Assembly (NCBI GenBank): GCA_039621445.1
Contig: CP154954.1
Coordinates: 38,611,703 to 38,675,702, forward strand
DNA: 64,000 bases
Direction of reading: 5' to 3'
Source of the DNA: Euglena gracilis
Lineage: Eukaryota
Shown in pieces: positions 25,779 through 63,717 of this stretch; positions within the stretch are counted from its first letter, which is position 1, and every line of letters begins with the position of its first letter. Position numbers and translations under genes: made by a program. The notes beneath the pieces are model-generated. The model saw only the letters and a program-made list of their open reading frames with translations, was not told the DNA's origin and ran no database searches.

Positions 25779-26433
25779 GGTACTTGTTCGCTGCACGACC
25801 GCCAGTGAATTATGGGGTCATTTGAAGGAGTAGTGTTAGGTGCGCACATGGGAGGCCAGGCACAGCGGGGGGGGGGCTGAGGGGGGCGAGTGGCCGCGCG
25901 GGCGGCCGCGCGGGGGGGAGGGGGGGGAGGGGGGTCCGAGGGCGGCCGCGCGGGCGGAACGCATCCTAAAACCGGTGATTTTCGGGTCCAAAAAGTGGTC
26001 ATTTTTAGCCATTTTTGGGCCATTTTTGCCCAAAAAAGTGCTTTTTTGGCCGCGCGCAGAGCGCGCGGCCCCCAAATTTTTGGTCATTTTTGGGCCTCAA
26101 AAATCGCGATTTTTTCACCAAAATTTTTTTTCTTGACTATGCTAGGCACAGGGGGGAGGGGGGGTCCAGGGGGGGGGCGAGCGGCCGCGCGGGCGGCCGC
26201 ACAGGGGCCGCGCCGGGGGGGGGGGGGCGGGGGGGTCCCAGACCCCCCCAAGCGGCGCGCCTAGCCTCCATGGCCAGGTTGCGCAACATGGCCATTTTGC
26301 GCACATGGCCATGTTGCGCAACATGGCCATGTAGCGCAACATGGCCATGTGCGCACCTAACCCTACTCCTTCAATAACCCTAAAAAATCCGACTGTAAAA
26401 ATTTCACTGGCGGTCGTGCAGCGAACAAGTACC
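25779..26433. mobile_element. Non-autonomous Merlin-type fold-back MITE
   Basis: TIR GGTACTTGTTCGCTGCACGACCGCCAGTGAA; perfect 8-bp TSD GGTGAAGC; internal inverted arms and tandem ACATGGCCATGTTGCGCA-like units; shares GGTACTT termini with the adjacent Merlin. Confidence 0.85.
25851..26269. mobile_element. MITE with 3-bp TSD (PIF/Harbinger-like) nested in the Merlin-type MITE; related copy in opposite orientation at ~17710-18135
   Basis: TIR GGAGGCYAGGC...GCCTAGCCTCC flanked by ATG/ATG. Confidence 0.75.
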
Positions 26434-27795: not shown

Positions 27796-27989
27796 TTTTA
27801 TTGACCCCCCCGATGGTGCCCCCCCCCCTAATAGTGTCCCATGCCCGCTCTTTGGTTGGGCCGGGTTTGGGACCAGGCAATTGCTTAAGCACTGACCGAC
27901 CCCCCCCCCCCGGGGGGTGACTGGTTTTTTTCAGAGTGACTGACTGGTTTTGGCCCGGACCCCCTCACCCCCCCCCGGGGGGCGCAAGG

Positions 27990-35200: not shown

Positions 35201-38200
35201 GGAACAAAATTTCACAAATTTCATGAGAAAAATTACTTCCATGATGCATTTTCACAACGTGTTTTTGGATTCAAAACTTTCCCCAAAACAGAAAATTTTG
35301 CCAAATAATCCTGACTGGAACTTCGGCGATCCACATGGCGCTCAGGGAATTTCTTAAGCCGGAGGGTACCCTACCCCCCGGGGGGGGGGGTCCAGCCAGC
35401 CAGCAGCTCAAATCCAGCCAGCAGCCCAAATTCGGGCTGGGAGCCCCCCCCCCCCGGGGTCGAGTGAAATAAAGTCGGGTCCAGCCCGGCCGGAGGCCGG
35501 GCCAGCCGGCCGAAGGCCGGCCCAGCCGGCCGCAGGCCGGCCAGCCAACTGGGCTGTCCAGCTCACTTATCCCTGCATTTTTCCCCCTCATCACAGCCCC
35601 TCCATCACAGCCCCCCAGCCTTGATCTAGCTCCACCCATCAAAATGTCGAAAATGGCCAAAATGTGTTAGAAAATTTTGTTTTTCGTCGACCCAGCCCAG
35701 CCCAGCCCGCTCCAGCCCGGGACCCCCCCCCCTCCCCCCCCCCCCCCCCCCCGGGGGGGGGGGGTCCAGCCAGCAGCTCAAATCCAGCCAGCAGCCTTTT
35801 TGCCAGCCGGGGGCTGGACCCCCCCCCCCCGGGGGGTCCTTAAGAAATTCCCTGATGGCGCTCCCGGGGGCTAGGGGGAACAATATTTTGGCAGGTTAAT
35901 TGGGAGCAAGTTTGCACAGAAGGAGGAGAGGGTTATGGAATTAATTTTTTTGAAACATAACAATCACCGCTGCGTATGTGATCAGGGAATTTCTTAAGCC
36001 GGAGGGTACCCTACCCCCGGGGGGGGGGGGTCCAGCCAGCCAGCAGCTCAAATCCAGCCAGCAGCCCAAATTCGGGCTGGGAGCCCCCCCCCGGGGTCGA
36101 CTGAAATAAAGTCGGGTCCAGCCCGGCCTCCGGCCAGGCGGCCAGCCGGCCGAAGGCCGGGCCAGCCGGCCGCAGGCTGGCCAGCCAACTGGGCTTCCCA
36201 GCTCACCTATCCCTGCATTTTTTCCCCTCACCACAGTTTCCTACATCACAGCCCCAGCCTTGACCAAGCTCCATCCACCAAAATGTCGAAAATGGCAAAA
36301 ATGTGTTAGAAAATTTTGTTTTTCACCGACCCAGCCCAGCCCAGCCCTCTCCAGCCCCAGACCCCCCACCCCCGGGGGGTCCAGCCATCAGCTCAAATCC
36401 AGCCAGCAGCCTTTTTGCCAGCCGGAGGCTGGTCCCCCCCCCCCGGGGGTCGTTAAGAAATTCCCTGTATGTGATGTGACCGAAGATTGTTTTTTTTTTT
36501 GCTCCACCTCCCCCCTCCGGGGCCAGCCAGGATCGGCCAAAACTGGCCCACCAGCGCCAAAGACACTGGAAATTTGGGGGGGGGGGGTTGAGCCATTTTG
36601 GCCCAATGGTCAGCGACCCCCCGTCTTCGGAGGCTCTAAAAAAAACCTGTCAGTGTCTTGGTGGGGGGGGGGGGTCGGACGTTTTAAGCAATCCTGGTAT
36701 GCACACATGGCATAGAGTGGGCCCCAGGGTTGTGTGGGAAGCTCCACAGGCATGAGGTGGGTGGTAGGGGGGTGCTCACCCCAGGGGGGTAAGGTTGTGG
36801 GGGGGGGTCCCTCACCCCCCAGTTTTGGAGGGGGGTCCCCACCCCCCCCCTTGGGGCTCAAATTTTGCACTCAATGGTAAGAAGTTCCGGGAACCAAAAA
36901 CAGGAGATGGGAGCAGGTTTCTGCTTAAGGGATTGCAGTACCCCCCCGGGGGGGCTGGACTGCAGCTGGCCCAAATTTGGCTAGTGGGATTTCTAGCAGA
37001 CCCCCCCCCGGGGGGGTTCTGCCAGCAGGGCTAGCTAGTGGAAAAAATTTTCCAGTGACCGGCGCGAAGCGCCGGAAATTTTTTTGGGGGACCCCCAAAG
37101 ATGGCCAAAAGTGCCTGTTTTTGGCCATTTTTGGGAGTTTTTTGAAACAAAATCAGCCAAAAACCTATTAAAAATCTCATTTCCACCTCGGCGCGCAGCG
37201 CCGGAGGAAATTTTTTTCCAGTTGGGGGGACCCCCCCCCCCCGGGGGTCTAGCTAGGCCACCTCCACGTACACAGACAAAAGGGCCAGAGGCGAACAACA
37301 GCGCCAGGCCAGAAGAAGGGGTAAAAGGCACCCAAAAACAGCCACAGTGCACACAGGGTGTCTAGCTAGTCCATTTTTTCCAGTGTCTAGCCGATTGGCT
37401 GGCCAGTACCCCCCCCCCCTCCCGGGTCTTTAAGCAAAAGCCTGGATAGGAGAGGGGTCCCCCCTCCCCTCTGGCCACCTCGGGAACCGGCGGATTATCA
37501 CCATGATCCCGGCTCCGTTTGCGGAATTTTTTTTTTCAGTCGCGAGCGACTGGATTTCTAGTTTCCGAATCACCTCCGGTTGACCCGCAACTCCCCGCCA
37601 GGCCCGAGTTATTCACGCGCGAAGGGTCCAAACTGGGTAGGATTGCTCCCCCCCCTTCCGACTCTGCCATTTCGCCGGGGTCCAAAAATCGGTCAAAAAT
37701 TGATTTTTCGAAAGTATCTCGAGAAAACGTACATTATTTCCGGAAATTTCGGTCTGACGTACCCCCCATGGGGTCCCCCCCCTACCCCCATTTTGTTTTT
37801 GTTTTTGAGTCCCATTCCCCCACTCCCAGTCCCCCTCCCCGATGGTTTTTTTCGAAGCTGAGTGTGATTTTTCCCCCCCCCCCGTTTCCGGCCATTTTTT
37901 TTCGCCGGCGATTATCCCCTTTTCAGGGCCCCCCTTCCCCGCATCCCGCTGGCTTGTTTCGCCCACCCCGCCGGGACCCCCCCCCTTCCAACCCGTATTT
38001 CGGTCCCCCCGACTTTCCCGTCCCTTTCCCCTTTTTCCCAGGCCGCCCTCTACAGGGTTTCGATATACACGTATATTATGGTTTAGGTGGGGGGGGGTGT
38101 CCCCCCACCCCCCCCCTCCTTGCCCCCACCTGCAAGGGGGGTCCGGACCGACCCTCGGGGGGGTACCCGGGACCCCCCCCAAAAAGGGTCAATTTTTTCC

Positions 38201-39818
38201 TCCGGCGCTTTGCGCCGAAAATTTTTTGCATTTTTGGCCAATTTTTGCCCAAAAAGTGCCCAAAATGGCACTTTTGGTCGTTTTGGGGGGTCAAAAATTT
38301 TCGGTCACCCTGACCGCGCCACTGTTTAGGTGGGGGGGTGTCCCCCCACCCCCCCCCTCCTGGCCCGCAGGGTGTCCCCCCCACCCCCCCCTCCTCTCCT
38401 TATATCGAACCCTGGCCCTCTATCACCCCCCGTTCGCCATTGTTTCGGCGCGGTTTTGAGGCCCAAAACGGCCATTTGGGAGTGTTTTTTGGCCGTTTTT
38501 TTTTGGTCAAAAAGTCGATTTTTCAAAAATATATCCACAATGAAGCAAAATCAAAGGAAAAGTCCGGAGAGCAAAAATGAAGCCCTTGGATGTATTATTT
38601 TTCCCCCAACTCTTCGTGTAGCCCGAGTTACGGCCATTTTTCGGCCAATTTTGGCCCAATTCAGGGGCCATTTTGGGCTGTTTTCGGCGTCAAAAAAAAC
38701 GATGTTTTCAAAATATCTCGAAAATGAAGCAAAATCAAAGGAAATGTCCGGAGACCAAATTTGAAGCCGTTGGAACGCCATCCAACAGTATTTTGCTTTT
38801 TCTGCCGCTCTGGGGGGGCGGGGGGGGTCCAACCCCCCCTTTTCCCCAGGGGTAAGCTTCGCTCTTACTCTAAAGAGATAAAAGCTCAGATCAGGGATTT
38901 TTTTAAGTTTGGACCCCGGGGGGGGGAGGGGGAGGGGTAGGGTGGGTGGGTCCGCCGGACCCCCTCCCCCCCGGGGGGGGGGTCCCCCCGGAGGGGGGTG
39001 GGATATACTTTTCGGCGCCGCAGGCGCCGAAAAAAATTCTATTTTTAGCACTTTTCGCAATTTTTCGGCCATTTTTTGTGGGTCCCCCGGACCCCCCTCC
39101 CCCCCCGGGCCCCCCCCCCCCCAGGGGGGTGGGTGGGTGGGGGGGGGACCCCCCCTCCCCCCCCGTCTTAAAAAAACCCCTGGCTCAGATACCCCACATA
39201 CCCCCATCCCCGGTATGGGGGCCCCGGCTTGTATGGGAATCTCGGAGGGGGGACCCCCTTCCAAAACTAGGGCCCTGTTTTGGGTCAAAAAACCAATTTT
39301 TCCAAAATTTCTCATAAATGGTGGGGAATCAAAGGAAATGTCCGGAGACCTAACTTGAAGCCTTTAAAATGCCCTATCTAACAGTATTTTGATTACCCCG
39401 CAACTCCCCGCCTAGCCCGAGTTACGGCCATTTTTCGGCCATTTTTGGCCATTTTGTACAGTTTTGGCCTGTTTTGATTTGGCCTTTTTTTTGGCCTTTT
39501 TTTTGGGTGAAAAAGACGAAAAAAATTTTTACCCGTAACGATGTTTTTTGGACTCTTGGACACGGAAAACGTGTTTTTGCGCCGAAAATGAGTGAATTTT
39601 GGGCCAAAAAGTCGAAAAAACCAACAAAAGAGATAGGGGTGGTATGGGGGGGGTTAAAATCATTGAAAGTTACCGTAAATTGCAGGTGTGTAATTTGTAA
39701 TTCATAAATTATGCAAAATTTGCAATGCTAGTCTTTTCGGCCTTCCATCACATGCAAGTCAGCATTATTCAAAACCTGGTTTAATTGGTCCCCAGATTTT
39801 CCTGCAAAACGACAGATT

Positions 39819-39857
<39 letters not shown>

Positions 39858-42800
39858 TTATATATATATATATATATATAGATATATATTAGACACAGAT
39901 CAGGTATATTTTTTCCCCGGGGGGATCCAGGGGGGGGGTCGGAAACCAGGGGTTTTTTTAGTTGTGGACCCCCGGGGGGGGAGGGAGGGGGTCGGGAACC
40001 AGGGGTTTTTTTTAGTCGTGGACCCCCGGGGGGGGAGGGGGGGTAGGGTGGGTGGGTCCGGCCGAGCCCCCCCGGGGGGGGGGGCCCCCCGGAGGGGGTG
40101 GGATATACTTTTCGGCGCCAAAGGCACCGAAAAAGTGCTATTTTTAGCATTTTTCGCGATTTTTCGGCCATTTTTTGTGGGTCCCCTGGGACCCCCCGGT
40201 CTTAAAAAAAACCTCTGGCGGAAACCCCCCAGGCACCGGGACAGTTTAATGGGTCCCGCACAAAATGATGCACCGGAAAAAGTATCAACCAGATGCCATG
40301 CGGGTGTGCGGGGGTGTGGGGGGTATGGGTGGCCCACTTTCAGGGGGTGATGTGACCCTTTTTGAATTCCAATTCAAGGGTTCTTTTTCCATTGGTCTTG
40401 CAGAAAGATCTGTCCCAGAATTTTGTTTCGCGCATGGGTTTTTTGCAAAAATTGGTTTCAGTCCAACGATGAGAAGTGCGCAGTTCAGAGAGTCATTCCT
40501 CCCCTTCCACAGTATTTCAACAGCCTCGCGTACAACGCGGAGCAGAATGTGGACCTACGCAAGGCAGTGGTCCATTATGAGTCTTCAGGAGTCAATGGCC
40601 AAAAGAAGAAGAAGCGGGTTGTTCTCCCTCGTTTCTTTATGTACCTTTTTTGTCCCTTGCATTCTTTTTTTGGATTCCAGTGCAATACAGTCCAATCAGT
40701 GAACGAGGCGGACAATTCGTGATTGATTAATATCTGATGGATCACGTTTGTAGTGTGAGCATCGCTTGATTTATTGATTTATTTGCAATGATTATTGAAG
40801 TGAATGCTTTTGGATCCATTTGCAAATTGAGCTTAAAATGCTGCGATTTCAGGCATGTCTTTTTTTCTGATTTTTCTCTGCGTTTGTCAAAAGAAAGTTC
40901 ATTTTTCTGTGCATTTGCCCTGAAAGCCCCGACCTATCAACCTTCAGATCACATTTATCGACACCCGGGCGACTACAGACGTTGTATCAACGACATCTCC
41001 CGTGGTGGCAAACAGGCTGTCGTTGAGTTTAACCCATCATCAAAAACCTGAAGATATTGGATGTCTGTGAAAAGGTGGTGTGGAGAAGATTGATCATTTG
41101 GCACCAAATTTGTAATGAGAATTAGGGGCCGACATTTGGTGCCTAAAACGTGCGCACCCCTGGATTTATTGGGAGGGGGTTAGTGCATCCAACCTCGAGT
41201 GTGCAATGAGTGGATGGGGAATCATCAGAGGGAGGGACTCACGCATTTTCCTGCGTTTATTTTGTGTGTGTTTTTTTTGGAGATTTGTGGGTTTGGAAAT
41301 GATTTCCATTTCAACAAAATTTCATACCATATTCTCTTTTGACCCAAATTTTAGGCAATATTTTCATTGTATGTTTTTTTTTTGGTAGCACAATTGCTTC
41401 TTCAGCTTGAACATGTTCCCAAACTAACAAAAATCATGTTGGTTTTTTTTGTTTCATGTGGACCCAAAAGAAATGCGCAAAGTCAAGCTTTCGTTATTTA
41501 TTCAACGTCTTTGTGTCTTTTTTCTCCGCGTTTTTGCGTCGCACATTTCTCTCCAGGGCTGAATTGTTATTGCCAGGGCTGAATTGTTCTCAACCCAATG
41601 CCCCGTTGGAGCCTTTTTTGTTTGCCTTCAAGGCATGCACCCCGCACCCCCAGAAGACACCTCCTCCGTATGGAAAGAGGAATTCCACCCTCCAGGGATC
41701 ACAAAGAAAAAGCAGTCTTGCAGCAAAACCCCCGGAAAACGGCCGATCGTGTTCACCTGGCACGCCAATCATGGCCAAGCGGAATGTGGCCAATCCCCAT
41801 CCGTTGGTGACCAACTGGGAGGAAGTCCCACTCAGCCCATTGCTGGATCCTTTCTCCCGGAATCCAATGGAGAGAAATAAACGACAATGTGCTCAGGAGT
41901 GATGTAATGGTTGACAGTTTTTTTGTTGTTCTGCAGCCCCTTCAAGGACAGTGGTCCATCAATGTTTGTTCATTGCCATTCTGCGAACCCCCCCAGTTGT
42001 GTTGTACCCCCCCCCCTAGTCGTACGACCACCCCTCATTTATGACCACCCCCCGGTCACAGGTTGCAGGTCATGGGGGTGTTATGACCCCCCCCCGGTCA
42101 CAGGTTGCAGGTTGCGAAAAATTTAACCCCCAAAAATAAGTCCCCCCCCCCCTGGCCGGTCCGAGTAAAAATCCATGAAATGGACCCCCCCCCAAAATAA
42201 GGTCCCCCCTGCCGGCGCGAAGCGCCGGATTTTTGAAAAATGGGACATTTTGGGGGGGGTAAATCTGCCATTTTGGGACAGTTTTCACACACTTCTACGA
42301 CCGCCCCCTCATCTATGACCACCCCCCGGTCACAGGTTGCAGGTTATGGGGGTGTTATGACCCCCCCGGTCACAGGTTGCAGGAACCCGGTCATACGACT
42401 AGGGGGGGGGTATGAATGCCATAGCATTAACTCTGGCAATCGCAACACGTGGGTGTATTGAATGAAGATGTGGCACACCTTTCCCTTCTGCCCACCACAG
42501 TGCCCATTGTCCGTCTTCTGTTTTTACCCAGTGGAGTCTTTTGAGTCACAATGGTTTTGATGCGCTGTTAATTTTCTTCAGCGGGAGTCACCAAGAGACA
42601 GGCCTTACATAGTGAGGGGGATCAAAGTGGTGCCGCCACCCCCCCCCCCCGGAGTCGGGCCCTCACCGAAGGACACCTCCCCTCCCTACCAAAACTTTGG
42701 GGACAGCCACACAGGGATCTTTGTTCTTTGTTCTTTCACGATGCCGTCCAACCAAAGGCTTTTTCGAAAACCTGGGGACTGGGGGGGTTTGAACACCAGG

Positions 42801-45800
42801 GGTTGGTTTGACACTCACACGGCAATGTCTCGGAAATGGTTGGCACAAGGAAGGGGGTGCCCTTCGTACTTAGAAAGAAAAATGCTAAACGAGACTCTGT
42901 TTTTTTTGTGTTTGTCAGCGCTGGTGTCATCTCGCCCCCCCCCCCAGCACAGGACTCGCCCCGGCCCAAATCTTGTCCCCGGCGGCCCGCCAGCTGCTCC
43001 ACCACACCCCCGCCCCGCCCCCCGCCCCCGCTGGGACAGCGGCCCCAGCGGCCCAGCCCCCGGCCTCGACGACCCCGGGGGCGGTAGCGGCCCAGGCTGT
43101 GCCGTCACTGTCGCTTCCCTCCAGGCTGCCGGAGGCCCCCCCAGGGCATGGCTGTTCCCCAATAATCATGCACCTCCCCCGGCCGACAAGGCAAGCATCC
43201 TAAAGGAATTATGCATCTCACCATTCTCACTCTCCGCATATGAACGCCAAACACACCAAAAATAACATCAGAGATTATGGATATTTATGGATAAGCCCCA
43301 AAACCCCCCAAATGGATAATTTGGCCTGGTGTGGCTGATGAGAATTTTTTGCCTAAGGGGGGGGGGGAAGGGGTCTACATCAGCATACACGAGCGCATAG
43401 TGGATCAACGCCATTTTTATTTTATTTTTGGAATGATGTTTTCATGACACTTGTTGTTGTATGGTATTTGTTGTGCATTTGTTTGGCACTCAATCTGCTT
43501 TATCTTGTTGTGTGGCAACTTTTTTTTTTGGGATAGTTGGCCCAGTCGATACCAGTGTCTTTGCCACAACAGATGAATGCAGATGACGGCATATAATAAA
43601 TTGACCTGCCAACTGTGGGTAAGGGCGGAGTCGCCGGAGGGGTTGCCTTCCCAAGTTTTCAGCTGGGTTTTGCCTCTTTTGGAATAAGCGCTCTGCGTTC
43701 CCTGGCCGCCATCCCCTGCCGCCAGCAGCCCACCATGCAGCAGCAGCTGCAGCAGCAGCAGGCCCTGAAGCAGCAGCAGCTGCAGCAACAGCTGCAACAG
43801 CAGCAGCTGCAATTCCGCCCTGGCCCCATTCAGCCACCTCCCGGTTCCGCCTGTCCCGCCTCCCATCTGGATCAGCAGGGGTTGCCTTTCATAATGTCGG
43901 CAAGGAATGGCGCCAGACCGTAGCAGCAACAGCAGCGGGAGCAGCTGCTCAGAGAACAGCAGCAACGGATGCACCAGCAGTTGTATCAGTCCTCCACCTC
44001 GTCGCCGATGAATTCACCCCGGGGGCCAGCACAGGTAGTAATTAAATTTTGATTCTCGCCTTTTCGGGCCAGAGCTGTGATTTCACTGCTCTCTCCCTTT
44101 CCATCCTGATTTTTTCAACTTCCCAACATTGAGGCAACAATTTGATGATATGATGCATTTTTGATGTGCGAGTTTTTTTTGTGTGTGCAAAGAAGTCTTG
44201 AGCTGTCTCTCTGCATAAGTTGTCACCTGTTCTGTTTCAGGAAAGCAGCAGCATCCAACAGCCACGGCAGTTTGCTGACACGACGCTTCCTCGGCCTTCA
44301 CCACGTCCAAGTCTCTCGCACAGGGTGCATGCTGGAGATTGATTTCCCGAACAAGTTTCCGGGTGGTGCTGGTTACATTTCATCACCCTTGCTTTGTCCA
44401 CTCAGGCATTTATCCCCTCCATTCCTGATTGCGAGCCACGTTGGGTCCAGGTGAAGCCAGGCTTTGTTTGCAAACATGCCTTCTCTCCTGGTTTTTTTAA
44501 ATTGTCTTTCATCCAATTTTCAATCCCAAGCTCACCACAACAGGTCTTTCTGCCGCGCGGGTGCAGGTGATTATGAAAAAATGTCTTTGACATATTTTAC
44601 GTCAGATTTCATACCACAGTCTATTTTATTAATGGCGTTGGGATGAGAGGCGCTTGCACTGGAGGGCACCCCTCGAGCAGCCCCCTTCGGACCCTTCTAT
44701 TAGTGACTATTGGTCACTTGGTGAATCTATTGCTGAATTGGCGAATCAGCTCATTTTATCTCCAATCAAAAAAACTGATGCTTCAAATTCAAAGACAAAA
44801 AAGACAAGTCGAGATTTGCTTACTCAACCAGGCTTTCCCCCCCCCAGAAGGTGCCTCCAAGGTCAGGCGGGGGGGGGGTGACCCCTGGTGGTTGGGTCAT
44901 GGGGTGAGTGGTGCTATATCACACTCCCCTGTGCCACGGTTCGATATAAGGAGGGTGCACGGGTGGAGGGGGGGGGGTGTCCCCCTCCTGGATTGGGGGG
45001 GGTTCACCTTTGGACTGGTTAGCTCCGACTGGAGCTGACCAAATTTCCCTTGACAGTGGCCATTTTACAAGCCGCCGGCACCTTCGGCATAGGGTGAAGG
45101 CAGGTGGGGGGTGGGGGGTCCTCCGGTCCAGGAGGCGGGTCCTGGGGGGGGGGGTCCCTGGGGTGTGTGCCATGGGCAGACACCCCATCGGACAATTTGC
45201 CCCGGCGTTGTTCAAATAAATTTGTGCCCAATCAAATTACATTTTTTTTGTTTTTTTTTGATTCTGTATTTCCATTTCCAGTTTTGGCTTTCCCCCAACT
45301 CCAGCCTTGTGGTCTTGGGTGATGTTTAGCCAATCGCTCTCAGGCCCATGTGCGTCTCATGTGGAACTGCGCAACTCCACGTGTGGGCAACTCCACGTGT
45401 GGCACCCCGTCAACCCCGGGTGTGCAACGGTGCAACGATGTGGCTGGGCCTCCTACAGGGAGACAAGTGAGAACCCAGGTGGCTGTTTTGGGCCCGGCCC
45501 AGCCAGAGAGCCGCAGCGCGCCCCCTGCCGGCCGGCGTCCGAGGAGATCCCCGTGCCGGCCCTGTCCCCGGCCGCCCGCCGGCAGGCGGCCGCCCACAAC
45601 GGGGAGGCCGCCGCCTCCCTGAGCGCCCTCCCGTCCAGTCCCTACTACCAGGCCCCGCCTGCCACGGTGCGGCAGGTCAACCCGAACCTCCGCATGCAGC
45701 CCCAGCAGGTGTGCATGGTGCCACCCGGCTGGTGCAAACTCCATGCACTCACTGTGGAGCTTTTGGGGGGGTCTATCCACTGCAACAATTTACTCGTAGT

Positions 45801-48800
45801 TATTGACAGTAGCAGACAGTCACCAGTAACTGTTTAGTTTCCCCCTGCAGCATGAGATCACGGCAGCCATTTGTGGAGAGGACAAACTGCGTGGGATATT
45901 CAGCCAGGGACGAGCGGCGGTGCCAGCTCCCCAAAGCGGCTTCGGCTTCGTTCTGCCGCAGCCCAACGGCCCCGCATCAGAAGGGCAGCGGCTCGCCCCC
46001 GGCCCCAGCAGCTCCAGCGCCGCCTCTGCCGAGCCCCCCGGCCCTGCACTGAAGTCGTACGTCATCACCAACCGCAACGCGGTGGCCGGCGCCGCGGCGC
46101 CAGAGAAGCGTATGCCACCCCGCTTGTCACATTTGGGGACCCCACTGAGGCTGTGCCACTGGCTGTACAACACCGGGCAGGCGCGCCAAGGCCCCAAGGG
46201 GCAGGGAGGGAGAAAACATGCACTATGCAGTTTTTTTTGCAGTTTTTTTTGGGGGGGGGCAACAGTGCTTGGACATGCAGCCAAGGTACTGCCAAGATAC
46301 TAGGCGGTTTGCCTGCCACAGGGCCCACCTCCCAGCAGATCATCAACCCCAACCTGCTCCGCAACGCATCCGCCGCCCAGCCCACCGCTCCGGCAGCAGA
46401 CCCCGGCTTCTCCTCCAGCGGCGCCAAACGACTGGCATCTGTGTCCCCACTATGACACCAAAAAAAGGAGGCTGGTTCTTTTTGGGGGGGGCCGCCATTT
46501 CCTCCCTCCTGTTTGCCACAGAATAGTCACCGCACGATTTTTTTTAGTTGGCGATTTTCAGGTTGAACAGAAATATCAACCAGGTCGTCCCAGAGGCAAA
46601 ATAAAACCCCTCAGGGTTGGATCGTTTTCTGCATTTTTTGTGTTTGCCACATTTTCCCCATACTTTCCTCGCATCTTTTATTGCAGAACCGTTGAAATGA
46701 AACCGCGCAGAAGTGGTTGTATTCAGGTGTTGCTTAAGCCCCACCCCCAGGGGGTCACCAGGGAATTCCTTTAGCCGCACTGGACCCCCCCCCCCTCAAG
46801 GAGGGTCCAGTCCGGCCAACACTTTTTTCCCAGCCAGTGTCCCAGTTGGGCTGCAGACCCCCCCCTGGGGGGGAGTGGAAAGTGTGGCGAAGCCGGGCTG
46901 GACTGAGAAAGGGGTCAAAATGGCCAAAGTGACTTTTTTATTCATTTTTTTTGGGTTTTGACCTCAAAATGTTGGTGAACTGAAAAATACAACCCAGCTG
47001 GATTTGTGCCTCTTTCTTGCCTGTTTTTTTTGGGGTTCCAGCCTGATACAGCCAGTCGGACCGGACCCTTGGGGAGGCAGCCGGCTGGGGGTGCTTGAAA
47101 AATTCCCGGGTCACTCTGACAATCTCCGGTCATTAAGCGACGTCCTCAAAATCATGACATCTTTTAAAAGAACGGAACACCCACTTCCATTGTTGCGATT
47201 TTTTTTTGTTCCATTGCTGCTGCCTGTCCAGTTGTGGCGGCCGTTGGGGACACACCCCCGCCTCGCAAGCTGCCCACCTCCCCCTTCGTCCTCTCCGCCA
47301 ACCAGCCTCGCAAAGGGTCCCCGCTGCCCCGGCGGGAGAACCGAAGCCCTGTGGCCGCCCAGAGTGCCACCACCGGCCCCGGACAACGGGTGTGTGGGTT
47401 TGGTGGTTTGGGTGTGTGTGGTGTGGGCGTATGCTGTATCTTTCTCTCTGTTTTCTTTTGTGTGTGGGTGGGTGGGTGGTTTGGTGGGTAGGTGGCCCGC
47501 GCTTTGGCAAGTCGGGATCCTCCCACGGCATCATCGCACGGCGGAATGGAGATGAGGGATTGGATCTCAGGACTCAGAATGGAATGGAAGGGGCCTGAGT
47601 GAAGCACAACACTGCTGGAGTGGGGAGTGCGATTTCCACAGCGGGAGACAATCCGCTTGTGCAGCCATCTAATTGTGCAGTTGACACTCAAATTTGGCCG
47701 TTTGGGTGCCCGACCCCCCCCCCCACCAGGCTTTCTCGTATTTCCGGGGGCGCCGATTTTCGGTTAAAATTTCCCCTTTGATGCCCAAGGAATCTTTCCG
47801 CGCGTGGTGCTGTGGTGGGTGGGGTGGGGGGTCCGACCCCCCCACCAACAAGCCCCTGAGCCATTGCGGTGTTTGTGACAGGTTGCACTTTGTGTTGACC
47901 AATTCCCCAATTGAATTGTGTATCATCAAAACAGTTTCATGCTCCCAGGCACTGCCACTTTCGAAATGTTTTGGTCACGCGCAGACGGATGGCCGCTACA
48001 ACAGCAGTCCCCTCCACGAGCGCAGCGGCTACAGCGCGTATGGGGCTTCGGCGTCTTTGTTGACGAACGCTGCTGTCTTGCGGGCCCAGTACATCAACTC
48101 CCCATCACGCTACGACTCGCCAACGCGGGTGTGTTGAGCTTGGGGGACAACGGTGGTGGGGAAGGGCCAATGAAGTGTTCTGCCTGGGGATTGGGGTGTT
48201 CACCCCCCTCCAAACATAAACACCTCAAAAATTTGATTCCAGGATCCACCTCCGCGATCCAACCTGAATGGATGGCTGGGTTCAATAACAGGGCTAGGTC
48301 AGGTTTTAACCTTGCAGTTATAAGTTTTGGGTGCCCCAACCCCAACTTTTTTTGGGTGAAGGGGGAGGTTGCTGACCATTTCAGGGTTTCCTGTGTGAGG
48401 GTCCATAAATAGAGGCAGAATGCAGATCTTTCACAAAGAAAAATAAATGAGTAAAAAATGTATATGATTCCAATTTCAGAAATGTCAAGGTTTGTGCCAT
48501 ACATCTCTCTAAGGTTTTGCGAACCCCCCCCCCCCGGGGGGGGGGGCGGCTGCAGCCAGCCCCGATTTGGGCCCAGCCCAGCCGCAGCAGCCCCCCCCCC
48601 GGGGGGGGGGGGTGCTGCTAGCCCAGCTAGCCAGCCCCTTTTTGGGGGGTCCAGCACAAAATTTTTCGGCGCGAAGCGCCGAAATTTTTTGAAAAATTGT
48701 GTTCAAAAGTGGCCAAAAATGGGGTTTTGGGGGCGTTTGGGGCATTTTTGGGGGGTTTCAGATGCACCATTTTTTCAAAACTGTGTTCTGCAGGTCATTT

Positions 48801-54340: not shown

Positions 54341-54512
54341 CAGGTACAGGTATAAGGTATATACACACACACATACATATATAGGTGTGTATACACACAT
54401 ATATAGGTATATATATACAGGTACAAGGTATAGGATTTTTAAGGTATAAGGTAGAGGTATAGGTTTTTTAAGGTATAAGGTGTAGGTATAGGTTTTAGGT
54501 ATTTTTAAGGTA
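54341..54512. repeat. (AGGTAT)-type simple repeat
   Basis: Degenerate tandem AGGTAT/AGGTAC units. Confidence 0.8.
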
Positions 54513-55168
54513 ATTAAAGATTTTTTCAAGGCGCCTTGACAAAATAATGCAGGCTGCATTTGACTGCAACATTTCATCAATGAGGTTGCATCCCAGTGAA
54601 GAAGGCAGACAAGTGCGATGTCAGGTGCGAGCTCATCAAAGTCATTCCATTTCCTCCACCAGGGGGGCCGACCACCAGAGGACCCATCCTTGCATTAACC
54701 CCCCTGCAACGATCTTTGCCCCCTGCAACGTTATTTGGGCAGTACCCAAAACCATCAATGGACCGATTGCAAACGTTTCCAAAAGAAATTTGTTGACATA
54801 AGCTGTTCACAAACATTTATTGCATAATTTTAATGCACCATTTCATCAAATACCAGGGCATTGTGGCAGTTCGGATGATTCCTTGCGCCACCACCGCCTG
54901 ATTTCCCAAACAGATGCATGATTTCTCACCGGTTTTCCTTGCGAAGGGGGCAAAGGTATTTGGCCCGACCATTCTCGGCCTTCCCCCTGCCAAGTTGTTC
55001 GGGCACACAATGCTTTAGGGCAGTGCAAAGTTGTTTTGGAGAGGTTTAGGGGGAGGGGGCACGGACCCGCCCAGTGGCCTGGCCGTTTCCGCCTCCCGCG
55101 CCGTGTGTTGCCGCGGCCCCCTGTTTGCCGCAGGGCTCAACCTCGAGGGAGCCCTCCGTTCCCCCGCC

Positions 55169-57803
55169 ATGCCCGGCCGCCTGCTGCCAGCCATCACACA
55201 GCCCGAGGGCACCGCGGCCCCGGGTCGCTGGGCGCTGCTGGGGCCCCTGGGCCTTTGCCTGGTGGCCGGGCTGGTCGGCTCCGCCCTCCTGACCGGACAG
55301 CGCATGCCTCCCATCAGTGCTTTTCCAAAGAAAAAAGCCTCAAAAAACCTGTCCCCCACCCATGGAAAGCGCCACCTCCCTCTTTTTGTTGTACCTCCCC
55401 CCCCCCATGCCCAATGAACACCCTTGCCCAATGAACAGGGGGTGTTCGGACCGTCTAGATTGTCACCATATACCCTATCTACACAGAAACCGTACCCAAA
55501 GCCCAATGAACACCCCCCGTTCGGACCGTCTGGATTGTCACCTTAGTGTTCATTGGGCTTGGGGGGGGAGGTACCTCCCTCGCGTGTCAACATTTCAGCA
55601 CAATTCCTGGCATATTTGCATTTTTTTGTTTTTTGATCTGGCCTCATCACACCGAATGCTTTTCTCCTCCGTCTTGATGATTTGGCGGAAAAGTCAATTG
55701 GCACCAAGAGTCAATTGGCACCAATTGCAATGCTGCGCTTGTTGCACAATTTCATCCTGGAAAACAAAACAGACGAACAAGGCTGGTGGCCACTCCGGGG
55801 GCCGAACTCACACGTTCAACACCGCAGCGACACACTGATGCCGCCGACCGAGCACTTTGTTCGCGTGGCCCCTGTCACCCAACCCACGGCCGTGGTCGCC
55901 GCCGTCCCCCCTCGGCTGCGAGATGCGGTGGCCCAGGGACCAACAGCACTGGCGGGGTTTCTGAAGGACGCTGACGTGCCCACCGTCCAGTCTCAGGTTT
56001 TTTTGTCTGTGTTGGATGCGGTACATGTGCATTCATTAAACCTCTGCTGCCTGGCCCCCAGATTCTGGAGTAGGTGGGTTTGGGCATTCTGGGTTCTGGT
56101 GGGGGGGGATGTCTCTGCCCGTGGTCCAGATGCCCAAGCAGCCATTTACGTGTACCATTTATCATACCATTTGTTTGCCATTTATTTGTGCCATTTATCC
56201 GTGACTCACGGTTATTGGCCACAGACCCTCCTGGCCAACCCCTAGGGGAGTGAGACAGGAATTTTTCTTGGAGATACAGCCGAAATCTATGGTATGCGAT
56301 TTTTGGATAAGTTTGTGTTGTGTAGTTTTTGTTGACCCCCCCTCCACAAAGGGTTGGAGTGATGGACTGGATCTCAGAGAAGACTGGTCTTTGAAAGTGA
56401 AGAATGACCCTGTCCCCATTGATATGCCCCCCCCCCCAGACAAGAAGGGGGGCACAAACCACACCGCCAGTTTTTGTACCAAACCTTTTGGCACAGCCGT
56501 ATATGAACTGGGTGAGGATTGGTAATTTTCCATGGGCCAAAATCTACCTGCCAAAAAGTGCCACCAACCCCCGGGACCAGGTCACCTGGGTTCCCCACCC
56601 CCCAAAACCCCATTATCACTGGAACCACTGCTGGTTAACAACCCCGAATAGTGAAATTTTGGCAATTTTTCGGCATAAATCGGGGCGGGGGGGGGGGCGT
56701 GATTTTCAGGGCCAGGTTGCCTCAATGCCAGGAAACGGGGGGACCCCCCTAAGGTATCAAAAGCGCACGAAACCTTCTTCGGACCTGGACTGCCATTGCT
56801 TTGCCCTTGACTCAGCTGACCGCTGTCCCTTCTGTTCTTTTTTTTGCAGCACAGCGACTCGCCCCACGCGTTGGGCTCCTTTGCGATGGTGGCCCTCGGC
56901 AGTGCAGTGGCTTTCGTGTGGGGACAATGCCATCCGGAATGATGTCCCCGATTGTTGTCTTTCCCGCCGCCTCCCAAGGTTGGAAAGTGGTCATGCCAGC
57001 ACTTGCCATCATGCAATCAGGCTTTTGCTTAAGGGATTGCAGTACCCCCCCCCCCCGGGGGGGGGCTGGACTGCAGCTAGTCCAAATTTGGCCAGTGGGA
57101 TTTCTAGCAGACCCCCCCCGGGGGGGGTCTGCTAGCAGGGCTAGCTAGTGGAAATTTTTTTCCCAGTGACCGGCGCGAAGCGCCGAAATTTTTTTTTGGG
57201 ACCCCCAAAATGGCCAAAAATGCCCGTTTTTGGCCATTTTTGTGAATTTTTGGAACAAAATCAGCCAAAAACCTGTTAAAAACCTCATTTTTCCTCCGGC
57301 GCTGCGCGCCGGAGGAAAATTTTTTTTCCAGTCCGGGGGACCCCCGGACCCCCCCGGGGGGAGGGGGGTCTAGCTAGTCCACCTTTTCCAGTGTCTAGCC
57401 GATTGGCTAGCCAGTACCCCCCCCCGGGGTCCTTAAGCAAAAGCCTGCATGCAATGCAGGGCGTCCCCCCCCCCTGTGCGCCACAGGGCCGTTTGACACA
57501 GCTGGAGTTTTAATCTGCATGCTTGAATCACAGTGCTTCAAAATGAAACACAAAAGGTGTTCTGAAGTGCAAACAACACAAAAATTTTTGTGGTATGTTT
57601 ACTGACTGAAAGTCTAGTTTGGATGCGTGGCTGCCTTTCCAACATTTCCCGGTGGCATGGCGGTGATATCTCTTGGGACGCAAGCGACCTCAACCACTAC
57701 CCATGGCGATGGCCTCCGTCGGCGATGAAGGTGTGTGGTTTGACTTTCCATTTATTATTGTTTATTATTTCTATTTATTATTTATTATTTATTACTTGTT
57801 ATT

Positions 57804-57870
<67 letters not shown>

Positions 57871-57897
57871 TTTTATTATTTTTTTATGTATTTATTT

Positions 57898-57937
<40 letters not shown>

Positions 57938-60900
57938 CTTATTTATTATTTTTTCTTGTTGGAAAAGTCAGAGGAAACAAATTTGCCATTTTGGTTGTGA
58001 ATTCTGGACAACGTTTTCCAGTGGTTATGTCCCCACTCCCTCTTGATGCGTTTCTTTGGACCTCTTCCCCATTCTTTCCTCTGTTTCTCTGCCTGCCTCC
58101 GGCGTTGGCGTTCTGCAAACCTTCTGGCTCTCTCATCTTTTCTTCAGATGAAGGGCCGATGGCCGTGTGAACTTAGTGGGGGGAAGGAACCAGTCACCCA
58201 TCTGCCCCCTCAGGGTTTTTTTTAATTTGGAGACTTTGATTTTGATTTTTAATTTGGGGACTCACCCCCCCCCCTGGGGCGGGTGAGTCCCCCCCAAGGT
58301 AGTCAGCCAGATAGTCCCTCGCTCAGAGGCGGGGTTTTGGCTTTTTTTTGGCACAAGGTGCCGATCTTTTTGACCCCAAAATGGGTCCCCACACTGGCAG
58401 GGGGCACCCCCCTGCCCCTGAGTGGGTGGGGGAAGCCAGTTTGTAAAAAAATAAACACTGGCCCAACGCCCGTCTTTGCCAGAGAACCGCAGCGAGTGGG
58501 ACAAGCGGGTGTCGGTGCTGGACCAGGGAGCGCCAGGTGTGCTCCCCTCCGGGGGACGCCCTCGGGCGCTATTTGCGATGCGGCCGAACCAGAGAACCAC
58601 CCGATTGCCGACATCCCCACCTCGCAGAAGAGGCACCTTCAGGGGCGAACCTTGCAGATATTTCTTGCAGATATTCCCACATTTTCCACACAAGCAGTTT
58701 TGTTCATTTGTGGGATTTTTGTTTCCAACAGGATTCCGCTTTTAAATGGCAGGTATTTTGGACGCCCAAAAAAATCACTTCGGGGTTTGCTTCTCCCGGG
58801 CACTGCCCCTGGGGGGAGCACCTGTGCCCGCCCAGGCATTCTAGGGTACTCAAGCCCCCCCCCCCCGAGGTTGATCAAATTTGTTTAGCCTGTCATCGTC
58901 ACCGCAGCATTCCTTCCAAATAGCTGGAAACTGGCAAACTTGGGCATTGAAGTGGGATAAAAAGCGAGAAAGGAACAAAACCATGAAAATAATTGCGTGG
59001 TGTGGAAACGTTAAGTAATAATCCTATGTGGACTTGGAAAACAGCATTGTGGTTTTGGCATGCATTTGGGGGAATCAGAGCTCTGCGGTTGGCAGCGTGC
59101 AAAAATGTGGAGGAAACCATCGAGCTTCATCGACCACGGGAAAGTATCAGGACAAAGTCCAAAAGCAAGAGAATGCATGGCTTTGTATATTTGCCCTCTT
59201 GTTCCTCAGACACCCGCCATGTGTCGGAGGCAGATTTTGGGAATCTGCTGGTCAAGTTCGTCCAAGAACGTTTTGGGGAGGAGCAGACCAAGCGAATTGT
59301 TGACTCTTTCCGTCGGGTGTGTACTGTTACTCACTGCCCACCTTTTTTAAACACTCCGCATAATTCCTTTTTGTTTATTTGTCATATTTTTTGGTGGCAT
59401 TTAGTCAGAAATGGACATGGCTCAAATTATTATTATACATTTACAATAAATGATTTGCAGTAAATAATAATAATAATAAATGGCAAATAATCAGATATAT
59501 TCATTGCATGAACAGGGTGGTTCTCAGGCGGCCGGCTTCGCGTTTTCGTGTTGGTTTGTGCATTTGCGCAAATCAACACGGAAAAAAATTGGCAGTGTGA
59601 CTACGGGGAGTCGCAGGCATGACACAGTGACCAGCGAGTGGAAATAATGAGTAAGCTGCGTAAATTATGGCGGGTGTAACCCCAGGTATTTTGGCGAAAT
59701 ATGGTGTTTTTTGGGGGGGGTCTGGAAATGGGCTCCGCATCTCAAAACTCCCGGGACTTTCCTCCCCGGAATGACAAAAATGCAAAAAAAAAAAAAGAGG
59801 CAAAGGAATGGGACTTTTACCCCCTTCTTGCTCCTTTTATTTAGTGTTATGTGTTTGGTGTGTTTTGCAAAGTGCGGGGAGGGGATGCTGGGGCCTGTGG
59901 GTGTGGTGTGACCAAGCTGGCGGGAAGGACGTAGAGCAAGGAAGGTAAGTGCAGGGTATTTAGCAAGGGATGGGCAGGGGGGGAAGAAATGGGGTGCGCA
60001 GGACGGGCGTTCCCACACAACTTGTGTCCGGGATACCATTGCTTTTCACCTGTCCCACGGGGGTGCCTGACTGGTTTTTGTGAGTGACCCCCCTCCCCCC
60101 TGGGGGGGTCGCTCAGCAATGGTATGATCCGCACAACCAGTTTTGTCACAAAGAACCCGGAAGAAGAAGCACAACCTTTGAAGAGCAAAATTTATTAGTG
60201 GGTGTGAATGCACACACAAACAAATTTTGTTCGTGCGAGCTTTCACGCCCATGAACACAATTTTGTTCATGGACGCCTGTGAACTGACGCCGTCGATAAA
60301 CGGCATGACGAAGGGGCCGTGACAGCACGGCGCCAAAAACATATTTTGGGGGGTTTGTCACACCGTTTATCGACGACGTCAGTTCATGGGCGCCAAGGCG
60401 CTCACAAGTATTTGTTTGTGCGCGCATTTGCGCCCACAAACAAAATTTGTTCATGGATTCTGAATGGTCGACACATGGTGTGACAAAATACACAGCCATC
60501 AAATGCGGGTGAATCGCTGAAGCGCGCATCACGTTTTGTTCGTGAGCACCATGCCCCAAAATGAACCAGTTGCAGAAAATCACAAGGGGTCCATTTGCGC
60601 CTGAGCCCCACACGAACAATGTCCCTTCGTTGTTCTGTTTTCCACCAAGGGTCCGCCCGTTGTTTCGCCCCTGTTCCGCACCGTGCCCCCTTGTGTGCCA
60701 GACGGAGCGGGGCGAGGAGTTCCGCCAGCGGTTCGGCCCGCACCCGTTCATGGAGCAGATCGCCAGCTCATACATCGCAGGACTGGCCAGGACTCCGGAG
60801 AACCTGTTGTGTGGTTTAGACTGGCGGCGCCGCGGCCGACGGTTTTGTGCGCTGCGGCCAATGCCACACCGGAATTCATTTGCGCCACGACCGGTGCCGA

Positions 60901-63717
60901 AAAACTATTCTGTGTCGCAAGGCACCAATTGCATGCTCCACCTCCCCGGCACAGCCCTGGGGCTGACCACCAAACCGGACTGGCCCGCCCCCGCCCAGAC
61001 CTACCCCTGGGCCAAGGTGGTGCAGGAGGGGTGGCCGACCATCCGCGCCGAGCTTGAGGAGGTGTGCCTGGGTGCAGGGGGCGCGTGCCACCACGGCACT
61101 GGTTCCGTGATTCCATTGGGTTGGGCTTGGCAGGAGGAAAACTTGACCTGGACAAATTTGTGCAGTTAATACTGCCCAAATATGTTTGGATAGTTTCTAA
61201 AATTGCCCAAACTTGCTTTGTTTATTTCAAGCATGTGAAATGCCAAACACCAAATGCACACCCTCCAAATAATTTTGCTCCCCTGAGAAGTTGGTGGGCC
61301 GATCTCATTTGGGCAGTGTTTAAAACCATTGACAAACCAATTTTCCATTTTCAATAAGAGTGATTTTGTGTCAAATGCTCTACTTACCAAGTATTTTATC
61401 TGATTCGACATCTCTGTTCACTGGACGACAAAACATTGCATTTCGAACGATTTGTTTGTGTTTACCGCCTGGGCATTTTACAGAAATGTGCATCGTTTTT
61501 CATGTTGTTGCTTGTGGGGGGGGCACTGTCATTTGGACGGACAACCATGAGCATGAGTTATTGACCGATGAGGGGTCCCAGGTTCACTTCTGCACAAATT
61601 TTTCCTTTTCTTTTGTGCAAGCACCGTTATTTGCATTTTTTTTTAAGACAGTGCCTGCAGATGACACTTGGATGCCCCCCCCCCGTGTCCAACAAGCATC
61701 CATTGTCTGGACAGTTTTCCCTGTCCATTCCGTGTTTGCAGTGAATGGGTGGCTTTTGTCTGTATGGCCAAAATGGTATTTTTGAGGGTTTTTTTTAGGG
61801 TTTTACCTGAATTTTTTTTGACTGAATACCAGCTGGCTTTGAGCTGTTTGCTTTTTTCAAGTTTCTTCCGGTCGGCAGGTCGGCAGCCTGCTGCCCCGCC
61901 CCCCCCCCAAAGCGTGGGGTCCATTTTTCTGGCCAGCTGCCCCTAGTGTGGTTTTTCGACCCCCCCCCCCTCGCAGGTACCCTTGAGAAATTCTCTGAAT
62001 TTCGACCTTGCCATTGTTGAGAGGGACGGGGGTGTCGCCCACCCCCACCCCTTGCATCGCCCAGTGCCCCTGCCAAAACCGTTGTGTGTGTCGGTGTCGG
62101 TCGATTTTTGCACACAAAATAGAACTCCAGTTGGCCCCACTTTTCATTTGCGACTGTCGAATTTGCCCGCCAATTGCATGTTTTCAGTATCAACATCTGA
62201 ACAAAATTCATGTTACAATTAGTTGCACCATCAACAATTTTCCCCAGAGGGGGGAGTTTTCCCAAGTCCTGGCCAGAACTGAAGTAACCTGGGGAGCTTT
62301 TGAAGGAATTTAGATACAACAGCTTTTTTTGCAGTTTTTGTGTGTTTTTTTTGTCGCATTTTTCGAGGGTCCCCATTCAGCCCCCCCCCGGGTGTCCCCC
62401 CTTCGCCCATCCCCAGGCCATCCGCCTGGGGGACGAGGGGCTGAAGGCGAAGGGCTCAGTCAGCTGGATGGGGGCGCAGGGCGGCGCCGACTCCTACGGC
62501 ACTGAATGGAAGACCCTGGGCCTGTGCGACCGGGGCTACTGGGGCCATGCCGCATGGTGGCGTGGCGGCCACCCCGACCGCGCCGGTACCCCTTGGTCGG
62601 CTCACCTGGCCCTGTGGGGAAACGCTCACACGCCCGTCAAACTGGAAAAGGATTGGGGGTTCCCATTATGTTCCCCGGGACAGTTATTCGAGTGTGCCGG
62701 CCGGATTAGTGCTGAAGAGTGTGAAAAACGTGCGGATGTCACAAAACTTGCAATTTTTTGAATGAATCTGGATGGGTGGTCAGGGACCCCAAATGTGGTA
62801 CCCCTTGTCACGGTGGTCTGCGGGGGGGGGGGGGGCATGGGTCGACCCCACACGCGTGAGGGCTGTTGCGGAGCTTCTTTGCTGAGGGGGCGGTTGGAAC
62901 GAACCCGCTGGGGGCGCAACAAATTGGGGCTTGTGGCGGGAGGCCCACCCTGGGGGCCATCCGGCATGCCTTCGACGATGACAACACCCGGCTGTTCAAG
63001 AACACGTGCCGCATCCTTCGCAAATCGAGGTGCGCTGAGTGGGTTTGGTTGCTCCGGTACCACCCCGGAGTTGGATTGTTCTCGCGATGCCAAGGTGGAT
63101 CGTTTGCTGTTCTCTTGATTGAGAGTTTTCTGGTTTCGCTGCACATCTTCATTAAGATCTGTTCGTTGGCTGTGCCACTAGGTTGCCCCCCCCCCACCCC
63201 CGGAGAGAGAAGGGGACCCCCCACCCTTGAGGTGGTCTGGGCGGGTTGGTGTGCCTGGGCCTGGACCTCGGGGGGCGGGGGCTTGGGTATGGGTTTCGGC
63301 ACGAAGCGCCAGAAATTTTTTGGGAACGTTTTCAGACGGCCCAATGTTTTTTGGTGCCCCCCCCCCCCTTGGGGTGTCCTGCACTGGGCTTGGTGGGTTG
63401 CCTGGAACCCCCGGAGGGGCCGTAAAAAAAGGAAGTCCGATCAGGTCCCCAAACGTTCTGCAAGGCTGGGAAATGATGTTTCCGTCGGGGCAGTGGTGCG
63501 TTGAGGCATACGCTGGGCCACCAACGCCCCTGCCCCGCGCGGTGCGGGCTGCGCGGCCCAGGGCCCCCATCATGGAGTGCTTCTTCGCCAAGATGCCGGC
63601 GCACACGGCCATCAAGCCCCACTCCGACTACACCAATTTCGTCCTGACCTGCCACCTCGGCCTGAAGACCCCACCGAAGAGCCACATCGCCTGCGGGGAT
63701 GCCCGCCATGAGTGGAG
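55169..63717 (+). CDS. Aspartyl/asparaginyl beta-hydroxylase-family 2OG-Fe(II) dioxygenase with bipartite plastid-targeting-like presequence; 3' end beyond window
   Basis: Phase-consistent exons 55169-55308, 55846-55996, 56850-56922, 57665-57730, 59210-59316, 60702-60784, 60965-61061, 62417-62542, 62974-63029, 63562-63717. Motifs YIAGLTTKPDW...YPWAKVV...WPTIRAELEE, YGTEWKTLGLCDRGYWDDDN, and ECFFAKMPAHTAIKPHSDYTNFVLTCHLGL (HxD iron-binding motif typical of the Asp_Arg_Hydrox family). Confidence 0.85.
55309..55845 (+). other. Non-canonical hairpin intron (ends uncertain by 3 nt)
   Basis: CATCAGTG...CACTGATG stem; in-frame join QRMP|TEHF; no in-frame GT-AG solution seen at this junction. Confidence 0.6.
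56923..57664 (+). other. Non-canonical hairpin intron, 742 nt
   Basis: G|gacaATGCCA...TGGCATggcggt|GA; join AVAFVWG|YLLGRKR completes a transmembrane segment. Confidence 0.6.
57018..57447 (+). mobile_element. hAT-like MITE family A (inside a non-canonical intron)
   Basis: TIR CAGGCTTTTGCTTAAGG; perfect TSD CATGCAAT. Confidence 0.95.
57750..57950. repeat. (TTTA)n microsatellite
   Basis: Directly visible, intronic. Confidence 0.95.
60785..60964 (+). other. Non-canonical CAG...CTG hairpin intron, 180 nt
   Basis: T|ggcCAGGACT...AGCCCTGgggct|G; join YIAGL|TTKPDW. Confidence 0.8.
62543..62973 (+). other. Non-canonical CAT...ATG hairpin intron, 431 nt
   Basis: G|ggcCATGCCGCATGG...CCATCCGGCATGccttc|G; 11/12-bp stem; join DRGYW|DDDNTRLF. 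Confidence 0.85.

Follow-up and report, generated by a model that had tools for sequence, protein, structure and literature searches.

We analyzed a window of 64,000 nucleotides of the Euglena gracilis genome (NCBI GenBank assembly GCA_039621445.1, contig CP154954.1, positions 38,611,703 to 38,675,702 of the forward strand; all coordinates below count from the first letter of this window) and found 12 MITEs (miniature inverted-repeat transposable elements) whose ends and 8-bp target-site duplications (TSDs) fit the register in which euglenid nonconventional introns are spliced. The geometric argument holds: the MITE anatomy is read directly from the DNA, the splicing code is published, and the two spacers of the code sum to the length of the duplication. 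We propose, at about even odds, that such MITEs are a main source of the nonconventional introns in euglenids and that the spacer total of 8 matches the length of their duplication. This proposal sharpens a hypothesis already in the literature, and in that sharper form too we regard the case as evenly balanced. All exon–intron junctions were called from protein homology and sequence, and all blastn similarity searches for introns and MITEs were confined to this one 64-kb window.

MITE anatomy and the nonconventional splicing code

Knock-in experiments in E. gracilis define the code of nonconventional introns as 5′-N3-CDG ... CH′G-N5-6 | R-3′, in which the 5′ spacer is 3 nt, with neither one nucleotide more nor one less tolerated, and the 3′ spacer is preferably 5 nt, 6 nt being tolerated (PMC12501133). 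Synthetic 50-bp introns consisting of CAG and 12 complementary bases were spliced, and function was lost when pairing was removed (PMC12501133). A MITE with CAG...CTG ends and an inverted repeat of 15 to 18 bp, lying between two copies of an 8-mer, meets this code by construction. The left copy of the duplication would supply the N3 spacer with its last three bases, and the right copy would supply the N5 spacer with its first five; the sixth base of the right copy must be a purine. Cutting in the 3/5 register would excise the element together with eight bases and leave one intact 8-mer. Because the spacer sum equals the duplication length, an exonic copy would be removed with exactly one duplication and the reading frame restored, whichever way the element is inserted. 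The first-pass annotation of the window had argued in these terms that 3 + 5 = 8, and the published spacers bear this out. A purine occupies the would-be first position of the downstream exon in 8 of the 10 CAG...CTG MITEs on the plus strand and in 7 of 10 on the minus strand.

On the reading that we favor, the nuclear genome carries many non-autonomous MITEs of 270 to 530 bp, in several related families, with inverted repeats mostly starting CAGG. A transposase of the hAT type would make an 8-bp duplication at each insertion. Once transcribed, an element would present three unpaired bases, CAG, a stem of about a dozen bases, a loop, CTG, five unpaired bases, and a purine. We infer from this that exonic MITEs are spliced out, that introns have descended from MITEs, and that the superfamily concerned is hAT.

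The same geometry might instead reflect a filter and not an origin. The 3+5 register would then have come first, for unrelated reasons, and CAG...CTG elements with 8-bp duplications would merely be tolerated in genes, so that the match arises by selection on surviving insertions and many nonconventional introns have some other origin. Consistent with such a filter, the purine rule, like the 3/5 split, belongs to the splicing machinery and not to the transposon (PMC12501133), the lengths and sequences of nonconventional introns are highly variable (PMC11282704), and the MITE duplications have no bias toward pyrimidine|purine at positions 5|6 (3 of 12 on the plus strand and 5 of 12 on the minus strand). 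However, a filter leaves unexplained why the machinery should need a CAG-starting stem and spacers totaling exactly eight, and the young gapC intron of E. agilis, with its 8-nt repeats, would still imply an insertion with an 8-bp duplication (PMC4770533). We consider a filter unlikely.

Twelve MITEs with 8-bp duplications

The region from 35200 to 40400 was read directly and contains elements that open with CAGG, close with CCTG, and are flanked by identical sets of eight bases. An inverted-repeat scan and an explicit table extended this reading to the whole window, and all 11 MITEs listed in the first-pass annotation were recovered. That annotation gave each of them an 8-bp TSD; the duplication is exact in seven (35343, 35983, 38053, 38892, 48498, 50323, and 57018) and matches at 7 of 8 positions in the other four (1647, 11516, 36914, and 39947). 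A twelfth MITE, absent from that list, lies at 15437 to 15845 and has CAT...ATG ends and an exact duplication (ATGTCCGC). Flank identity is thus at least 7/8 in all 12 elements and exact in eight. The ends are CAG...CTG in 10 and CAT...ATG in two. The elements measure 271 to 531 bp each, and their combined 5,041 bp make up about 8% of the whole window. Their terminal inverted repeats are 15 to 18 bp long in most copies, with 9 to 18 of the first 20 bases matching, and most families have TTAAGG or TAAGG near positions 12 to 17. They are small, noncoding, and multicopy, the families being held together at 76 to 91% identity by blastn against the window.

Family A has four copies at 82 to 91% identity: 1647–2041 (starting CAGGCATTTGCTTAAGG; flanks CTTGGGGG and ATTGGGGG, 7/8), 36914–37444, which bears an internal insertion (flanks GATGGGAG and GATAGGAG, 7/8), 50323–50766 (exact duplication GTTGTCGC), and 57018–57447 (exact duplication CATGCAAT), the last being 91% identical to the copy at 50323–50766. 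The two copies of family B, 87% identical to each other, lie at 35343–35854 (starting CAGGGAATTTCTTAAG; exact duplication ATGGCGCT) and 35983–36467 (exact duplication TATGTGAT). Family C is also represented twice, at 11516–11950 (starting CAGGGTTCGATATAAGG; flanks GGAAGGGG and GGGAGGGG, 7/8) and 38053–38414 (exact duplication GCCCTCTA), with 76% identity between the copies. Family D comprises 38892–39182 (starting CAGGGATTTTTTTAAG; exact duplication GCTCAGAT) and 39947–40217 (flanks TCGGAAAC and GCGGAAAC, 7/8), which are 86.5% identical; in the latter the 5′ end and its flank are in tandem duplicate, the second start being at 40000. Beside the MITE at 15437, the other single element with CAT...ATG ends is 48498–48973 (starting CATACATCTCTCTAAGG; exact duplication GTTTGTGC), which has subterminal similarity to families A and B.

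As a control for chance, inverted-repeat pairs starting with CA, with 12-nt arms and at most two mismatches, were collected from the real window and from its reversed sequence. Among 523 pairs in the real sequence, the flanking 8-mers were identical in seven and matched at 7 of 8 positions in five. The reversed sequence gave 249 pairs, none with 8/8 and two with 7/8. The flank identity of the MITEs is far above chance.

Pieces of these elements also occur inside genes. A terminal piece of family C (GGTTCGATATAAGGAG) lies at 44930–44960 in an intron of the gene at 43.7–46.5 kb, and a short match to the core shared by the MITEs (a GC palindrome and, after it, a run of A/T) is found at 63280–63330 in the GT-AG intron 63030–63561. 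MITE fragments within gene introns indicate that MITEs do land in transcribed regions here. A search of metagenomes with the terminal 17-mer of family A returned 46 contigs with single matches, which we read as chance and set aside; a partner end with four mismatches was present in only four of these contigs, and duplicated flanks in none.

Two candidate nonconventional introns in a hydroxylase-like gene

An aspartate/asparagine β-hydroxylase-like gene lies on the plus strand at 59173–63717, with its 3′ end beyond the window and a match to Pfam PF05118 at 63.5–63.7 kb. To model it, we combined reading frames and splice motifs with homologues. The model has exons at 59173–59316, 60702–60784, 60965–61061, 62417–62542, 62974–63029, and 63562–63717. 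Three of the intervening introns (59317–60701, 61062–62416, and 63030–63561) are GT-AG, and the other two are candidate nonconventional introns. The first, 60785–60964 (plus strand, 180 nt), reads ggc-CAGG...CCTG-gggct and is followed by an exonic G. The second, 62543–62973 (plus strand, 431 nt), reads ggc-CATGCCG...CGGCATG-ccttc, again followed by an exonic G; its inverted-repeat arms match at 11 of 12 positions. The borders are neither GT-AG nor GC-AG, being GG...CT at 60785–60964 and GG...TC at 62543–62973. The 5′ spacer GGC is common to both. The first-pass annotation had counted six non-GT-AG introns with terminal stems in this register; we located these two, of which the second ends precisely where that annotation ended its interval, and did not find the other four. 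The register itself was described correctly, the stem of both introns running from +4 to −6 with three and five unpaired bases.

Two close homologues, P0016 (474 aa, on a contig of 1,621 nt) and P0017 (333 aa, on a contig of 1,630 nt), were found with the exon 62417–62542 as protein query. The spliced model is 69% identical to P0016 with one single-residue gap and 61% identical to P0017 with two such gaps, and no gap falls at any of its five junctions. In-frame GT/GC-AG alternatives exist, and each gains or loses residues, mostly at least 10, relative to both homologues. The ungapped junctions and the misfit of these alternatives argue that the two candidate introns are probably placed correctly to the codon. 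A protein search with the stretch 60702–61061 gave no match.

A further protein, P0001, was considered as a transcript product of this locus and rejected, as it is a 192-aa open reading frame (ORF) from another public assembly that reads through adjacent intron sequence. It was the only protein found with the query 63536–63715, which includes the last modeled exon and which it matches at 100%, with a few substitutions beyond, and is evidently an unspliced genomic copy of the hydroxylase-like locus from another data set.

The intron at 60785–60964 conforms fully to the published code, with CAG and CTG, the spacers ggc and gggct, and a G thereafter. Its flanking 8-mers (GGACTGGC and GGGCTGAC) agree at 6 of 8 positions, and both mismatches fall in intronic, unconstrained parts. 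At 62543–62973 the corresponding 8-mers (ACTGGGGC and CCTTCGAC) agree at 4 of 8. Taken together (n = 2 introns), a match of 10/16 or better has a probability of 0.0018 at a match probability of 0.25 per position. The earlier annotation had proposed excess identity between the flanking 8-mers as a check, and the joint probability from these two introns may point to such an excess.

RNA folding of the intron at 62543–62973 places the terminal helix in the minimum-energy and centroid structures alike. In the minimum-energy fold of 60785–60964, the outer helix uses an exonic copy of CAGG 10 nt upstream; because that register would break the reading frame, homology favors the intronic copy. Two copies of the 7-mer CAGGACT, offset by 10 nt, lie within 60778–60794, one making up the final bases of the exon and the other beginning the stem of the intron, and this duplication could mark the origin of the intron or provide an alternative, frame-breaking register. 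In an excised intron, the 3-nt 5′ and 5-nt 3′ tails on the terminal helix would amount to a 2-nt 3′ overhang, like that left by an RNase III; this is speculation, and the tails need not pair. Elsewhere in the gene, nested inverted repeats with arms of 43 and 39 nt, 79 to 85% complementary, lie at 60183–60452 inside the GT-AG intron 59317–60701; they may represent a further small element of palindromic type, one whose flanks are not obviously duplicated.

The two introns also bear on the possibility that MITEs and nonconventional introns are unrelated, with CA...TG ends being common in DNA transposons, short stems at intron termini being under selection for splicing, and 3 + 5 = 8 a numerical accident. 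Such a coincidence would account for the lack of sequence similarity between either intron and any MITE in the window, for intron stems of 7 and 4+4 bp where the MITEs have 15 to 18 bp, and for a pattern resting on a sample of only two introns. It would have to absorb three independent features that agree, namely, the CAG/CTG end of the stem, a terminal pairing of about 15 bp that suffices for splicing, and spacers that add up to the length of the duplication, as well as the 6/8 flank identity at 60785–60964 and the published 8-nt repeat of a young intron (PMC4770533). We judge pure coincidence to be quite unlikely.

Transposases and the superfamily of the MITEs

A Pfam scan of 30 ORFs gave matches to PF05118, DSPc, and DDE_Tnp_IS1595 only. 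The last belongs to a Merlin/IS1595-like transposon at 26525–27795, whose open frame of 355 aa is on the minus strand (26863–27930) and which has 38-bp inverted repeats starting GGTACTT and an exact 8-bp duplication (TTTTATTG). A noncoding relative of 655 bp adjoins it at 25779–26433, with similar ends and the duplication GGTGAAGC. Merlin elements are known from E. gracilis (PMC8101967). The element shares its 8-bp duplication with the CAG...CTG MITEs, so this duplication length alone cannot identify hAT. Its ends differ, being GGTACTT and not CAG; they do not fit the splicing code, and this Merlin copy is for that reason not the partner of the CAG...CTG MITEs.

The label "hAT-like" for the MITEs is a guess, drawn from duplication length and CAG ends. 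Like hAT-superfamily MITEs, the elements here have 8-bp duplications, short inverted repeats starting CAG, and no coding capacity, but they agree only in part with the terminal and target-site consensus of that superfamily. The hAT terminal consensus is YARNG. Six of the 12 MITEs, with CAGGG, fit it fully, four (CAGGC or CAGGT) fit it at 4 of 5 positions, and two (CATA) do not fit. The target-site preference of hAT elements is nTnnnnAn; position 2 holds T in 5 of the 12 duplications and position 7 holds A in 5 of 12, the number of sites being small. A hAT element, maize Ds, is reported to have created an intron (Giroux, 1994, a case taken up by Milanowski in 2014). Splicing of Ds uses ordinary splice sites within the element, and in this it differs from the mode considered here.

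Neighboring genes

The window is repeat-rich and gene-poor, with roughly 45 to 64% G+C and many homopolymer tracts of C or G. All other modeled introns are GT-AG: the three in the hydroxylase-like gene, two in a phosphatase-like gene, and those in the gene at 43.7–46.5 kb. The phosphatase-like gene (29296–29858, plus strand) resembles dual-specificity phosphatases, its DSPc match being just above the Pfam cutoff. It has two very short GT-AG introns, 29508–29557 and 29646–29688, with junctions placed by eye, and in the spliced reading a serine stands at the position of the catalytic cysteine in the active-site loop, so the protein may be inactive. The gene at 43684–46455 (plus strand) is rich in glutamine and alanine and has a high GC content at third codon positions (GC3); its introns, where modeled by eye (for example 43843–43923 and 44037–44241), are GT-AG, and the single open frame scanned from it (45830–46303) had no Pfam match. 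No further conserved genes were found by a GC3 scan or among the 30 ORFs searched against Pfam, 20 of which had no match at all, and Rfam gave no match. A scan for 3/5-register stems that would connect open frames returned about 42,000 hits whichever geometry was tried and was discarded as uninformative.

Discussion

That euglenid nonconventional introns derive from MITEs is an already published hypothesis. Milanowski 2014 proposed it when no transposable elements had been identified in euglenid genomes (PMC3935182), Nomura 2025 restates it in its discussion (PMC12501133), and a 2024 review describes "TSD-like sequences" at nonconventional intron junctions (PMC11282704). We found no published version of the 8-bp/hAT-like arithmetic. 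In the available portions of these three papers, of Milanowski 2016 (PMC4770533), and of a diplonemid paper (PMC12621601), there is no mention of hAT, of an 8-bp duplication, or of 3 + 5 = 8, and no published link between nonconventional introns and this arithmetic was found in the literature outside subscription-only papers and supplements. The two introns described here resemble euglenid nonconventional introns in their non-GT-AG borders, +4/−6 stem, 3/5-nt spacers, and the purine that begins the next exon. They differ in that the CAT...ATG of the intron at 62543 lies outside the CDG/CH′G code, and the account offered here differs in that the published ones, as far as their available text goes, name no transposon family, superfamily, or duplication length.

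The closest published support comes from the gapC gene of E. agilis, which has a nonconventional intron in one strain only and hence a recent gain, with junction direct repeats of eight nucleotides, longer than those of the other introns in that paper (PMC4770533). Milanowski 2016 itself suggested double-strand-break repair for this gain (PMC4770533), whereby filler DNA is captured at staggered breaks and short direct repeats are left behind. Besides being the interpretation of those authors, break repair agrees with the fact that junction repeats are common at conventional introns as well (PMC12501133). But it predicts neither a constant repeat length of eight nor inverted-repeat ends starting with CAG, whereas real transposons with exactly 8-bp duplications and CAG-starting inverted repeats are present in the genome. 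We think break repair improbable.

A MITE origin draws on the geometry, on the 8-nt repeats of the young gapC intron, and on the 6/8 flanks of one intron in the window; the causal link that the first-pass annotation had drawn between the MITEs and the introns did not emerge within the window itself. Several observations weigh against such an origin. The intron sample is two, from one 64-kb window. Neither of these introns has similar sequence elsewhere in the window, the MITEs included, so the expectation of intron families matching the MITE consensus sequences failed for both. Flank identity is only 4/8 at 62543–62973, whose triplets CAT and ATG are outside the published CDG code although its spacers and purine conform. 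The stem of 60785–60964 is only 4+4 bp, and whole-intron folding energies are no better than those of shuffled sequences (z of 0.07 and 1.57). None of the 12 MITEs is demonstrably exonic by in silico excision followed by an ORF test; after excision one of the 12 lies in a long open frame, at about the 95th to 99th percentile of random positions, and the frame around it is proline-rich low-complexity sequence. A hAT transposase with matching terminal inverted repeats, for which the annotation had proposed a search, is not among the 30 ORFs of the window scanned with Pfam, no autonomous partner of the MITEs was found there, and the sole transposase found is Merlin/IS1595-like, from a superfamily that also makes 8-bp duplications. 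Junction repeats are frequent at conventional introns of E. agilis too (PMC12501133). Finally, the duplication length accounts for the spacer sum of 8 and not for the 3/5 split, so that the idea of the splice register as the footprint of a staggered cut may hold for the sum and leaves the split unexplained.

A parallel is offered by introners and other transposon-derived introns, known from Micromonas, Amoebophrya, Polarella, and Fritillaria, which are likewise small exonic transposons with inverted repeats and are cut out of the mRNA along with one TSD copy (PMC11282704). Introners, as described in the available text of that review, differ in being multicopy families actually found as introns, whereas none of the introns in the window is a family member. 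The spliceosome removes most introners, via GT/AG supplied by the element or by its duplication of 3 to 5 nt, in contrast to the noncanonical removal and 8-bp duplication considered here.

In its strongest form, the proposal is that a single kind of DNA transposon, with CAG...CTG ends and an 8-bp duplication, seeded the entire class of nonconventional introns in euglenids (about 70% of introns in E. agilis), and that the 3/5 register is fixed to make the RNA taken out equal to the element and exactly one duplication together. This we advance tentatively, as something rather less than an even prospect. In E. agilis, 71.8% of 649,158 introns are nonconventional (Nomura 2025, PMC12501133), and junction direct repeats, which make the junctions "slidable," occur in 84.4% of introns (PMC12501133).

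The origin of euglenid nonconventional introns and their odd cutting register have been in question for some thirty years. Since 2014 a MITE origin has stood as a proposal with no element named, and the window now supplies concrete MITE families: their ends satisfy the code defined by experiment, and their 8-bp duplication is as long as the two spacers combined. These MITEs and the 8-nt repeat published for a young intron yield a sharp prediction that can be checked on the 649,158 annotated junctions of E. agilis. If the proposal is true, euglenids would offer a second, spliceosome-independent way for transposons to generate introns genome-wide. If one kind of transposon seeded them all, the excised circle would be the RNA image of the transposon plus a single target site, the splicing machinery would in effect be a transcript-level repair of these insertions, and the spacer sum should follow the duplication length across euglenozoan lineages.

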